Position numbers and translations under genes: made by a program | Notes under the pieces: model-generated | Told to the model about the DNA's origin: nothing | The model's database searches: none | What the model saw: only the letters and a program-made list of their open reading frames with translations | Part shown: positions 46,041 to 52,282 of the stretch, in pieces | Numbering within the stretch: the first letter of the stretch is position 1 | Layout: every line of letters starts with the position of its first letter | Assembly: GCA_965207575.1 (NCBI GenBank) | Contig: OZ242288.1 | Location: 2,941,467-3,005,466 of the forward strand | DNA length: 64,000 bases | From: an uncultured Candidatus Binatia bacterium | Lineage (GTDB): Bacteria > Desulfobacterota > Binatia > Bin18 | Direction: 5' to 3'

Positions 46041-46181
46041 CCAGCGTCGAGACGAGCCCCGGCTCGCCCGGCGGGGCGAGACACGAGGAACAGCGCCCAG
46101 TGGGGCGTGGTCAGGGAAATAGTCGCCCCCGCAGCGCATCGGGCTCCGCGCGTACGCGGGTGCCGGGTATCCCGCCCGGTC

Positions 46182-48659
46182 TTAGGGTGTGACGTATAGT
46201 TTGTATGAACTGATCTGGTTGTTCATCCCGTGCGCGCCCAAACCGACCTCCTGGGGCCCCACGTAGGTCTGTGCCGGGCCGGTGAAGGCCCAGTCGCGGA
46301 ACACCTCCACGGTATAGCCCGCCCCCACGATGAGACTGGAGATGGCATCGTCGTCTTCCGGTCCTACCCACCCCACCTCTATCGGCGCCGTATGCGCAAT
46401 CTCCCAACTGCCCGCCGCCCCCAACCCCCGCTCCCGTAACACCAGCGCGTCGGCCACCGCCCCCGCCACCGCCGGCGTGCGATACAGCTTGTACGAACTG
46501 ATCCGGTTGTCCAGCGTACTACCACTCAAATCCACGCTCTGCGGCCCCACGTAGGTCTGCCGTCCCCCCCGGAAGTTCAGATAACTGAAAACCTCCACGG
46601 TATAACCCGCCTCAATAATGAGGCTGGAGACCCGATTGTCGACCTCCCACTCCAGCCAGTCCACCGCCACCGGCGCCGTATGGGTAATCTCCCAGCCGCC
46701 CGCCTCATTCAACCCCCGTTCCCGCAACACCAGCACCTCGGCCACCGCCGGCGTACGATACAGTTTGTACGAGCTGATCTGGTTGTCCAGCGTATCCCCG
46801 GCCAAATCCACCTCCTGGGGCCCCACGTAGGTCTGCCGTGTCCCCGCGAAGTCCCGATGACGGAAGACCTCCACCGTATAGCCCGCCCTAACGATGAGAC
46901 TGGAGAGGGCATCGTTGTCTGCCCATCCGATCCACCCCACCTCTATGGGATCATTATGCGTGATCTCCCAGCCGCCCGCCTCATTCAATCCCTGTTCCCG
47001 TAATACCAGCGGCATGGAGGTCGTAAACGGATCGGTGTTCGCAATAATCTCCGGTAACGGGTCTATTTGGGTGGTCGTCTCCCCCAGGGCCAGCTTGACC
47101 GCACGGTAGGCGTTGAGCCGGCGGCCACCGGCCAGATTCTTCTCCGTGGCACTCACATTGCCGGCGGCGTCCAGCCCATCGAACGCTTCAAGGATATCGG
47201 CGGAGTCTCGGAGCTTGGCCTTCAACTCGCTGGGGGTCAGGGTAGGTTTGACCATCAACATCAGGGCCGCCACGCCCGCGACTTGCGGGGCGGCAAGAGA
47301 GTTGCCTGGTAGCGTAAAGTCTACTGTTGGGATGTCCTTTGCCCCGGTGGCAATATCGATATGGGCACCATAGGTGGTGTCCTCCCAAATACGTTCCCTG
47401 TTATGCACGGTGTCCAGTTCCGTGCCGCCCACCGCAATCACGTTGTCCAGGCCGGCCCAACATTGCTGCCCATTGAGGCTCAGATCAGACGCAAAGTCCG
47501 GCGGCAGGTCTATAATGTCAACTCCCCCCGATTCCTCAGGGCTATTTCCGGCAGCCATGACGAACAGCCCTTCTGAATAACCCTGAAGGGCCTGGTACTC
47601 TAGCAACAAAGAGTTTACCGGCGTCGTACTATACTCGTCACAGTTCTGATAGGTATGATAGATTCCCAGACTCACATTGATAATATCCAACTCGTTGTGC
47701 CGCGCGAAATTCACGCCTTGGACGGCGTCCAGCGTGCTAAAGAGCACGTCGCCAACCCGGGTGCCCACAAGCTCGACATCCTGGGCCACCCCGAAGCTGC
47801 TCTCCCCATTATTGAACTCCCCGGCAGCCACCCCGGCCACCCAGGTGCCATGATCATAGACAGGAGTGGGGTCCGGATCGTGTGAGGATCCTATAAAATC
47901 TCGGCCGCCATTACACGTGGTCATCGCGCCATTCTCATCCCGACAATTGGTCTTGCTCCATTTCTTCCCGGCTAGATCTCGGTTGCTGAAGTCCACGCCC
48001 GTATCGAGTATGCCAATCGTGATGGGTCCGGCCCCAGTGGGCCGGTCCGCCGCGCGGACCCACACCTCATCCCACGCATCTCGGAGTTGGATCGCCTTGA
48101 GATGCCAGGCCGATGTGCGGGACGGGTCGGGATTGGAGGTCTGGTCCGTGGTGTAGGCCGCACTGACCTGGCGGGGGTAGTACAGGAAGTTGGGTTGCGC
48201 ATGCAGGACACCGGCGAGTGGCTCATCCTGAAGGAGGTTCTTAAGGAGGGTAATGACGGTGTGCGGGTCTTCCTCTACCCCCAGGGCAATCGCTTCGGTC
48301 TGGAGGGAGTCGATGCGCGCGATCACCTCCGCCGACGGGAAGCCGTTGGTCCGCAGCAGGTCATCGACCACGCCTACCGGCCTGAGCGGAATGTCAATAT
48401 CGGACAGATCCCCCACGAGTCCGCCGAGTCCGCCGAGTCCGCCGAGTCCGCCGGGCAGTCCCCCGTCTACAAGATCATCCAAGAGGTCTTCGAGGTGGGC
48501 GGTGTAGACCGCCTCATCATATTGAATCAGCACCACCCCGAGTTCGTAGGAGGGGGCACCCGGTGCGCCCTGAGTGGGCTGTGCCAGGGCGGAACCCCCG
48601 AGGAAGAGCACGGTGAACAACCCGCCGGTGAGGAAACGCAGGGTTTGCACTAGCAGCAT
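46182..48659 (-). CDS. Secreted subtilisin-like (S8) serine peptidase with three C-terminal beta-gamma-crystallin-like repeats
   Basis: Signal peptide. Asp (ILDTGVD), His (DHGTWVAGVAAG) and Ser (GTSLAAPQVAGVAALM) triad motifs. Three approximately 92-aa repeats carry the Greek-key signatures YTVEVF..F.G..QTY and ISSYKLY. Confidence 0.8.
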   Translation of the reverse strand: MLLVQTLRFLTGGLFTVLFLGGSALAQPTQGAPGAPSYELGVVLIQYDEAVYTAHLEDLLDDLVDGGLPGGLGGLGGLGGLVGDLSDIDIPLRPVGVVDDLLRTNGFPSAEVIARIDSLQTEAIALGVEEDPHTVITLLKNLLQDEPLAGVLHAQPNFLYYPRQVSAAYTTDQTSNPDPSRTSAWHLKAIQLRDAWDEVWVRAADRPTGAGPITIGILDTGVDFSNRDLAGKKWSKTNCRDENGAMTTCNGGRDFIGSSHDPDPTPVYDHGTWVAGVAAGEFNNGESSFGVAQDVELVGTRVGDVLFSTLDAVQGVNFARHNELDIINVSLGIYHTYQNCDEYSTTPVNSLLLEYQALQGYSEGLFVMAAGNSPEESGGVDIIDLPPDFASDLSLNGQQCWAGLDNVIAVGGTELDTVHNRERIWEDTTYGAHIDIATGAKDIPTVDFTLPGNSLAAPQVAGVAALMLMVKPTLTPSELKAKLRDSADILEAFDGLDAAGNVSATEKNLAGGRRLNAYRAVKLALGETTTQIDPLPEIIANTDPFTTSMPLVLREQGLNEAGGWEITHNDPIEVGWIGWADNDALSSLIVRAGYTVEVFRHRDFAGTRQTYVGPQEVDLAGDTLDNQISSYKLYRTPAVAEVLVLRERGLNEAGGWEITHTAPVAVDWLEWEVDNRVSSLIIEAGYTVEVFSYLNFRGGRQTYVGPQSVDLSGSTLDNRISSYKLYRTPAVAGAVADALVLRERGLGAAGSWEIAHTAPIEVGWVGPEDDDAISSLIVGAGYTVEVFRDWAFTGPAQTYVGPQEVGLGAHGMNNQISSYKLYVTP

Positions 48660-51979: not shown

Positions 51980-52282
51980 AGCCGACTCCTCCTTGGATCG
52001 TGTCTCCTGGTGAAACATTCCGCCCCGTCCAGTTCGGCCCCTCGTGTTTCCCGCTCGGCGACACCGGGCGCACGGGGGGCCCCTGGCTAGCCTCCCGTAC
52101 ACCATGACCGCCCGTTTGTCCCTAGAAGAATTACTAGGGTCGGAAAGAATTATGAGGCGCGGTCGTCAGTGAGAACCGTAGGGTATACATTTCGTAAAAC
52201 CCGTCTTCTCCTGATAATAAGAGGAGGTTCGGCTTGACCATGAGGGGAAACAGTGCGAACCACGAGGAAAAAGGAGGCCAGC

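Follow-up and report, generated by a model that had tools for sequence, protein, structure and literature searches.

Tandem genes for putative secreted subtilases with beta-gamma-crystallin tails in an uncultured Candidatus Binatia bacterium

Two tandem pre-pro-subtilase genes

We analysed a 64,000 nt stretch from an uncultured Candidatus Binatia bacterium (GenBank assembly GCA_965207575.1, contig OZ242288.1, positions 2,941,467 to 3,005,466; hereafter the window, with a G+C content of approximately 60 %), in which two adjacent minus-strand genes, designated A and B, were found to encode putative secreted S8 proteases (subtilases) ending in arrays of beta-gamma-crystallin-type repeats. Gene A (46182–48659) is an intact open reading frame (ORF) of 2478 nt encoding a pre-pro-subtilase of 825 amino acids (aa). 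Gene B (48998–51979) encodes a second pre-pro-subtilase of 993 aa, 100 % identical to the database protein P0003; its ORF runs on upstream to 52105, with the conserved ATG start codon at 51979. Over their full length the two proteins share 71 % identity. Comparison of the window with itself recovered two matching DNA blocks, both far beyond chance expectation, namely 46527–48819 against 49871–52162 at 83 % identity, covering the N-terminal 2.3 kb, and 46122–46919 against 48938–49711 at 78 % identity. Alignment of the DNA past the stop codons delimited conserved minus-strand 3' flanks at 46122–46181 (gene A) and 48938–48997 (gene B), with 59 of these first 60 nt identical. The initial annotation, made from the sequence alone, had described two neighbouring genes with a common signal peptide, propeptide, S8 domain, 5' leader and 3' flank, and every one of these shared parts was recovered here in what are tandem paralogues. 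Its estimate of about 85 % identity over a leader of about 150 bp also held, at 83 % over 163 aligned nt, whilst its duplication unit of about 2.9 kb is corrected to approximately 2.7 kb for A and 3.2 kb for B, with a start-to-start spacing of 3343 bp. An antisense ORF of 428 aa (49385–50671, plus strand) crosses the repeat array of gene B and is most likely a by-product of GC-rich periodic sequence rather than a gene.

Protease region

Both products scored far above the Peptidase_S8 gathering score of 21.8 bits (106.1 bits for A and 117.4 bits for B), and their nearest solved relatives by sequence were deseasin MCP-01, Tk-SP and the classical subtilisins. The domain matched by this profile spans approximately aa 177–540 of the gene A product, and the codons of its catalytic residues, each of which was checked, lie on the minus strand at 48003–48005 (D219), 47850–47852 (H270), 47544–47546 (N372, oxyanion) and 47298–47300 (S454). 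Motif positions place the equivalent minus-strand residues of gene B at D209, H261, N363 (oxyanion) and S445. The triads of A and B, together with the Asn of the AAGN motif, align with deseasin MCP-01 and with D32, H64 and S221 of subtilisin BPN', a reference sequence of 275 residues whose length and anchors (D32, H64 and N155) are self-consistent. D219, H270 and N372 were invariant across 37 aligned S8 sequences, and S454 was at least 90 % conserved. In the gene A product the residue preceding the catalytic Ser is Asn, where Thr is usual (GNS versus GTS). Four cysteines are conserved between A and B, all of them in the catalytic domain and none in the tails, and those four fit an extracellular enzyme.

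Upstream of the catalytic domain, gene A opens with a typical Sec signal of approximately 26 aa (MLLVQTLRFLTGGLFTVLFLGGSALA, with the putative cleavage site after …SALA and before QP). The following region, approximately aa 27–176, probably forms a subtilisin-type propeptide, as judged from an AlphaFold2 (AF2) model of aa 1–550 with a mean predicted local distance difference test score (pLDDT) of 79.8, and from Foldseek searches. The model places a beta-alpha-beta-beta-alpha-beta unit at aa 38–162, with pLDDT values of 59–89 outside a low-confidence, disordered Gly-rich loop (aa 71–87) within the unit, and a disordered linker at aa 161–176 before the catalytic domain. The longest Foldseek alignments, of approximately 520 columns, were to pro-forms, namely PvSUB1 and PfSUB1 of Plasmodium, ProN-Tk-SP, pro-subtilisin E and EpiP. 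The profile scores, the Sec-type N-terminus and these pro-form matches agree with the earlier assignment of an S8 subtilase preceded by a signal peptide and a propeptide.

Beta-gamma-crystallin domains

The C-terminal repeats were identified as complete beta-gamma-crystallin domains of 86 aa, each comprising two Greek keys. By the limits of a repeat-profile hidden Markov model (HMM), the minus-strand array of gene A (46188–47009) consists of domain 1 at 46752–47009, domain 2 at 46476–46733 and domain 3 at 46188–46445, and that of gene B (49004–50356), also on the minus strand, of domains 1 to 5 at 50102–50356, 49826–50077, 49544–49801, 49280–49537 and 49004–49261, respectively. Two Pfam families of the same fold clan matched the tails, namely Crystall_3 in gene B (30.4 bits; gathering score 27.3) and Inhibitor_I36 (37.9 bits in gene A, and 29.8 bits; gathering score 21.1). 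A search of all PDB sequences with a 45-repeat profile returned 14 microbial beta-gamma-crystallins and a single unnamed chain (E-value 0.96); the former included clostrillin (3e-7), flavollin (4e-6) and spherulin 3a (2e-3), as well as hahellin, Protein S and an archaeal crystallin. An AF2 model of one repeat reached a pLDDT of 90.6, and in a Foldseek search of the PDB with this model, ranks 1 to 36 were occupied entirely by beta-gamma-crystallins at template modelling (TM) scores of 0.62–0.77.

Using the published definition of the calcium-binding motif, N/D-N/D-x-x-S/T-S in each Greek key (PMC3551895), we found canonical motifs in 15 of the 16 Greek keys of the window, comprising six of six in gene A and nine of ten in gene B, where key 2 of domain 1 reads DNRINS. 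Across the family, canonical motifs were present in 63/90 first keys and 82/90 second keys. The second-key signature F-x4-F/Y-x-G was present in seven of the eight window domains and in 82/90 family domains. The first Greek key is degenerate, without the aromatic signature, and reads LVLRExGLxEAGGW; some microbial S-type motifs have likewise been described without the Greek-key signature (PMC3551895). By sequence and model alike, the repeats are microbial-type beta-gamma-crystallin domains with predicted Ca2+ sites. The ratio of non-synonymous to synonymous substitution (omega) between corresponding cassettes in different genomes was 0.22–0.62, which indicates purifying selection and presumably a functional domain. 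The early call of crystallin modules is upheld by the Pfam, PDB profile and model-based searches and by the motif counts, with the Greek-key signature carried by the second key and the Ca-binding motif by both. The competing identity named alongside that call, another fold such as PKD or PPC without the Greek-key signature, was rejected, with zero Pfam matches to PKD or PPC at E ≤ 1 and none in the 50 best fold matches.

Repeat number and domain cassettes

Tandem Repeats Finder returned a period of 276 nt, with 2.9 copies in gene A, 5.0 copies in gene B and copy spacings of 264–288 nt, and the domain counts resolved by the repeat-profile HMM were exactly three for A and five for B. The period of 276–288 bp given initially was confirmed, as was the count of three repeats in A, whilst the count of about six in B was wrong. 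A 31-mer that had been quoted as an example of near-identical repeat DNA, encoding …LDNQISSYKLY, occurred once exactly and three times with one to three mismatches, against zero occurrences expected by chance; such short motif-coding stretches do exist, but whole repeats are only 68–81 % identical in DNA. Within A and B the domains are 52–70 % identical in protein, with synonymous divergence (dS) of 0.29–0.79.

Clustering of 90 family domains at approximately 78 % identity gave 37 types, designated by letters, by which the array of gene A reads J-L-H and that of gene B reads C-F-I-G-D; the eight domains thus belong to eight types, none of them repeated. Each of the two arrays is 83–94 % identical to arrays in other paralogues and genomes, and every single domain has a counterpart of 86–94 % identity in another protein. 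The three domains of gene A match the first three of P0004 and P0007, with the J-L-H array kept in P0004 and its last two domains (L-H) in P0007, and the five domains of gene B match domains 4–8 of P0001, a nine-domain paralogue on the same 4.71-Mb contig, which carries at least four paralogues. Other arrays include N-D-C-F-I (P0018), B-Q-G-D (P0015), B-B-A-A-V-G-D (P0002) and S-B-T-C-F-I-G-D-U (P0001). Complete family proteins carry between two and nine domains, and some contain runs of a single type (A-A-A, E-E-E, M-M).

The domain order differs between proteins, indicating that whole-domain cassettes have been moved by recombination. On these sequence comparisons the A and B arrays are old cassettes relocated in this way, not fresh products of slippage, and expansion and contraction are a property of the family over evolutionary time. 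Recent expansion within gene A or gene B was rejected, given the 68–81 % DNA identity and the occurrence of no type twice. Ongoing expansion or contraction of these two arrays, as originally proposed, was accordingly not supported by the eight types, the 52–70 % protein identity or the age of the duplication junction described below.

Duplication junction

The junction of the two duplicated units (48823–48937) stands between the leader of gene A and the 3' flank of gene B and comprises a filler (GCGGCGTTCGCCTTGAGCGCCGCG, minus-strand reading), the right half of a miniature inverted-repeat transposable element (MITE) at approximately 48842–48926, ending in the terminal inverted repeat …CGTGCAACGCGCTAG, and an 11 nt spacer. 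This is the MITE fragment that had been predicted at the junction. A full-length copy of 282 bp lies downstream of gene A (45758–46039) and has terminal inverted repeats CTAG[AC]GC…CGATG…, and the self-comparison located further copies at approximately 5516–5667, 43970–44140 and 62088–62247. The element is short and non-coding, is present in five copies or fragments of 80–282 bp and has inverted CTAG[AC]GC…ACGAT… ends, as expected of a MITE. Members of this MITE family have an internal hairpin (GTCATTCCTGCG…CAGGAATCCAGG), and internal insertions distinguish the copies.

Two further contigs proved informative on the age of the junction. The two family genes of the metagenomic contig L002 are separated by the identical junction, made up of the 3' flank, the half MITE, the filler GCGGCGTTCGCCTTGAGCGCCGCG and the leader. 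Contig L003 is syntenic with the window (amidase, amidohydrolase, S8, S8 and a 470-aa membrane protein) and keeps the joint between filler and leader, with the MITE half deleted; a full-length MITE follows its distal gene, and the proximal half of this MITE is the same sequence as the junction fragment. The duplication is old, because the same junction is also present in L002 and, with the deletion, in L003. Judged from these alignments, the tandem pair is the product of a single old duplication with one breakpoint inside a MITE, and no fewer than three genomes have inherited it. In L003, the second family gene (5716–8752) is split by a frameshift near codon 338; the contig has only 4x long-read coverage, and a sequencing error and a real pseudogene are equally likely.

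Leader sequences

The minus-strand 5' leader of gene A (48660–48822) contains a CATAAT box resembling a -10 element, the palindrome CCCTAGTAGTTCTCATAGGG (48777–48796) and a weak Shine-Dalgarno sequence, and that of gene B (51980–52165, minus strand) contains CATAAT, the perfect palindrome CCCTAGTAATTCTTCTAGGG (52120–52139) and the Shine-Dalgarno sequence AAGGAGGAG. The gene A leader is shortened by a 35 nt deletion that the other copies lack. Alignment showed a leader of approximately 185 nt to be common to all seven gene copies at four loci (A and B of the window, and the copies on L002, L003 and a further locus, L004). Its first approximately 60 nt are almost invariant (CTCATAATTCTTTCYGACCCTAGTAATTCTNCTAGGGACAAACGGGCGG) and hold the CATAAT box, the palindrome CCCTAG-N8-CTAGGG and ACAAACGGGCGG; this segment lies at 48760–48822 and 52103–52165 in the window, 1460–1530 and 5335–5400 in L002, 2540–2610 and 5530–5600 in L003 and 9812–9880 in L004. 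Within the window the palindrome is confined to these two leaders, and a consensus scan identified a promoter-like TTGAGC-18-CATAAT upstream of gene A at 48835–48806. An Rfam search of 45000–53000 returned no RNA family, RNAalifold applied to the seven leaders gave a GC-rich fold with almost no covariation, and a metagenome scan for the invariant leader core gave no match. The segment is probably a shared promoter or operator, and not an RNA element.

Mosaic genes and rapidly evolving cleft loops

We compared the seven gene copies, forming 21 pairs, by sliding-window identity and omega. The nearest neighbour of a given copy changed along the gene. Codons 240–540 of gene B, for example, are 97–100 % identical in DNA to the downstream gene (gene 2) of L002, whereas codons 90–180 are only 83–85 % identical to that gene and are closest to gene A. 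Orthology by tandem position was rejected, as the catalytic domain of B, the upstream copy, finds its match in the downstream copy of L002; it is also contradicted by the array of gene A, which matches the upstream copy of L003. From these patterns, gene conversion or recombination among paralogues is frequent and the genes are mosaics.

Pooled omega (Nei-Gojobori estimates) was 0.32 for the propeptide and 0.89 for the whole catalytic domain. Between A and B the catalytic-domain value was 1.00, and it was near 1 for most of the 21 pairs (47040–48131 and 50360–51450 in the window, with L002, L003 and L004). Amino-acid variability peaked at the BPN' equivalents of the segment before His64 and of residues 96–107, 125–135, 152–167 and 209–220, segments which we take to line the substrate cleft of subtilases. 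Over gap-free columns, omega was 1.50 in these cleft-loop segments (bootstrap 95 % confidence interval 1.02–2.30) and 0.65 in the rest of the catalytic domain (0.46–0.90), values to be read with the segment limits drawn after the variability map was seen, the 21 pairs non-independent and recombination common. The cleft loops evolve much faster than the remainder, which fits divergence in substrate specificity. A diversity-generating retroelement was considered as a source of the variability and dropped; B and P0009 are 97–100 % identical across the variable loops, and a Pfam scan of ten genes around the pair, which was no direct test, contained no reverse transcriptase.

Distribution and relation to known proteins

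A word-indexed search with the repeat profile gave four matches; an exhaustive profile search, covering 1.84 billion representative proteins, was used instead and identified 1404 proteins carrying this kind of domain at E ≤ 1e-3. The S8 family formed only three clusters in the representative set. Partner domains were surveyed with Pfam in the 62 best-scoring of the 1404 proteins outside the family and in two further proteins scanned singly. The 25 commonest of the 45 Pfam families found in the 62 proteins did not include Peptidase_S8, nor was it present in the two scanned singly. Partner domains in the 62 proteins were FG-GAP, DUF3472, astacin, Laminin_G_3, cadherin-like and RTX domains and type IX secretion system (T9SS) tails. 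The closest relatives of the window domains, at 45–61 % identity, are situated on the C-terminal side of FG-GAP and DUF3472 proteins, so that the module behaves in this lineage as a general-purpose appendage of extracellular proteins. Outside the family, the nearest S8 relatives (P0024–P0028, 38–42 % identity) have Glug tails, accompanied by fn3 in three of the five. With lower confidence, and for the best 62 of 1404 matches, we suggest that fusion of a crystallin to a subtilase is uncommon. Our search of the literature found no description of a subtilase fused to beta-gamma-crystallin domains.

Known multidomain subtilases (deseasin MCP-01, Tk-SP, Vpr, fervidolysin) have the same pre-pro-S8 architecture and D-H-S triad, provide the best-matching catalytic core and likewise keep a C-terminal non-catalytic extension in the mature enzyme. 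Their extensions are PPC/PKD, beta-jelly-roll or fn3-type domains, whereas A and B instead carry three and five crystallin domains (two to nine across the family). Microbial crystallins (clostrillin, flavollin, hahellin, spherulin 3a, Protein S, vibrillin) share with the A and B repeats the double Greek-key fold (TM scores 0.66–0.77), the second-key F-x4-F/Y-x-G signature and two Ca2+ motifs per domain (PMC3551895). They differ in sequence (14–27 % identity), and the first key of A and B is without their aromatic signature; most of those studied are isolated domains or parts of non-enzymatic proteins, whereas the A and B repeats form tandem arrays on a protease. The Streptomyces metalloproteinase inhibitor SMPI (family I36) belongs to the same fold clan, and its Pfam model matches the tails above threshold, but the A and B tails are cysteine-free, keep the Ca2+ motifs and show no sign of an inhibitory loop. 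Crystallin fusions to astacin, FG-GAP, DUF3472 and GH29 fucosidase place the same or a related module on secreted enzymes and adhesin-like proteins, with a different partner domain. C-terminally extended subtilases and bacterial beta-gamma-crystallins are thus each common, and it is their combination that is unusual.

Proposed function and alternative explanations

Taking these data as a whole, we consider it probable that A and B belong to a small family of secreted pre-pro-subtilases with crystallin tails, the members of which recombine with one another. The products would be exported through Sec, as their signal peptide predicts, and would fold with the assistance of the N-terminal subtilisin-type propeptide suggested by the modelled fold, which would then be removed by autoprocessing. 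With D219, H270, S454 and the oxyanion Asn372 in place, the mature protein is predicted to act as an extracellular serine endopeptidase and would keep its C-terminal crystallin domains, three in A and five in B. These are most likely rigid, protease-resistant, Ca2+-stabilized modules that would be loaded with Ca2+ outside the cell, where the tail would lengthen the enzyme and keep it attached to a matrix, whether the cell envelope, an extracellular polymer or some insoluble substrate. After duplication, the family has evolved by gene conversion and recombination, by gain, loss and reshuffling of cassettes and by fast change in the cleft loops, and the copies probably differ in substrate preference and reach and are not redundant.

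Several points weigh against this interpretation. The propeptide gave no match to the Pfam family Inhibitor_I9, and its fold rests on a medium-confidence model. No lipobox, LPXTG, PEP-CTERM motif or T9SS C-terminal domain was found in A or B, in which the last domain is directly followed by the C-terminus. A role as stalk or tether, including the surface-targeting or substrate-anchoring function suggested initially, is only a plausible inference for the tail. In addition to the caveats already attached to the cleft-loop values, omega above 1 in these segments is suggestive of positive selection but no proof of it, and a large part of the signal could stem from relaxed constraint on surface loops. 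Finally, expression of gene A may be weak or its product less active, considering the GNS motif, the 35 nt deletion in the leader, the weaker ribosome-binding site and the absence of the gene A product from a collection of 15 billion proteins in which B, P0001 and P0006, all from the same contig, are present.

Among the alternatives, the one that fares best holds that the crystallin tail is a module for Ca2+-dependent self-assembly into a surface coat, with the proteases displayed on the envelope or spore coat rather than released. The model for such a function is Protein S of Myxococcus, which has two beta-gamma-crystallin domains and polymerizes on the spore surface in a Ca2+-dependent manner (PMC10574481), and which was among both the fold and the sequence matches of the repeats. 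Some microbial domains, for example vibrillin, also oligomerize (PMC3551895), and other extracellular proteins of the lineage carry the same module. Most characterized single microbial domains, such as clostrillin and flavollin, have however been described only as Ca2+-binding stability modules, and the range of two to nine domains suits a role as spacer or in avidity equally well. We regard a coat function as possible yet unlikely.

A more far-reaching interpretation would treat the genes as a diversifying protease toolkit engaged in an arms race, a subtilase-based counterpart of variable surface-protein families. The near-invariant leader and conserved flanks of several paralogues per genome could serve as recombination handles, through which catalytic segments and crystallin cassettes could be swapped, and positive selection could reshape the cleft loops, whilst the tails would tether the enzymes in a Ca2+-dependent manner to the cell surface, prey or host material. 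As a whole, this scenario appears doubtful to us.

Slightly less probable still is the reading of gene A as a redundant copy in decay that will end as a pseudogene, with neutral drift accounting for the differences between the copies. The catalytic-domain omega of 1.0 between A and B would be expected under decay, and the four features of gene A listed above (GNS for GTS, leader deletion, weaker Shine-Dalgarno sequence and absent product) point in the same direction. Yet the 2478 nt ORF is intact with the triad and oxyanion Asn in place, and its tail is under purifying selection, with omega of 0.41 against gene 1 of L003 and 0.22 against L004. Catalytic omega near 1 is also seen in most of the 21 pairs and is not confined to those involving A, and the J-L-H array of gene A is preserved in P0004 and its L-H part in P0007.

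The remaining two explanations can be set aside briefly. That the repeats are I36 (SMPI)-type inhibitors, guarding the enzyme or cell against metalloproteases or auto-inhibiting the subtilase, draws on Inhibitor_I36 being the best-scoring tail family in gene A, but I36 and the crystallin families are one fold, the match spans the second Greek key only, the repeat profile retrieves crystallins and not SMPI from the PDB, and the microbial-crystallin Ca2+ motif is kept. SMPI relies on two disulfides and a Cys-Val reactive site, and with cysteine-free tails and a PDB search that finds crystallins, we rejected this very improbable reading. That the tandem arrangement or repeat numbers are artefacts of assembling a repetitive region is scarcely credible, for although repetitive arrays are a known source of misassembly and the related low-coverage contig L003 has its frameshift in the second copy, the copies (83 % identical) and repeats (68–81 %) are too diverged for collapse or assembler duplication, the independent contigs L002 and L003 carry the tandem pair with its junction, and a database protein encoded on a 4.71-Mb contig matches the gene B product exactly.

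If the tail of these putative enzymes is indeed a Ca2+-dependent stabilizer or tether, it would supply a concrete enzymatic context for microbial beta-gamma-crystallins, the function of which is largely unknown, and would provide enzyme engineering with a modular spacer that resists proteases by nature. The family is also a compact natural example in which cassette shuffling, gene conversion between tandem and dispersed paralogues and accelerated change of specificity loops appear together. The finding does not overturn current understanding.

Other features of the window

A second tandem gene duplication was observed at 3568–5482, where adjacent plus-strand ORFs of 325 and 289 aa are 78–86 % identical in DNA at a spacing of 934–937 bp. 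Paralogous genes for hydantoinase/caprolactamase-like alpha and beta subunits lie at 10995–16661 and 17268–19364, with 70–73 % DNA identity and an offset of 6297 bp, and the window is generally rich in amidohydrolases, amidases, luciferase-like monooxygenases and CoA-transferases. A low-GC stretch (54697–55306) contains two small overlapping minus-strand ORFs of 148 and 76 aa, which by eye resemble a PIN-domain toxin and its antitoxin. A direct repeat of 159 nt (55481–55639 and 58584–58742, 92 % identical) brackets an MMPL transporter gene, and one of its copies lies inside the 5' end of a luciferase-like monooxygenase gene, a placement that hints at insertion with partial gene duplication. 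At 41008–42968, a DDE transposase ORF (41008–41820) abuts and overlaps an ORF of 389 aa for a xanthine/uracil permease; the permease of the syntenic contig L003 has 580 aa, and that of the window may have been truncated by the insertion sequence.

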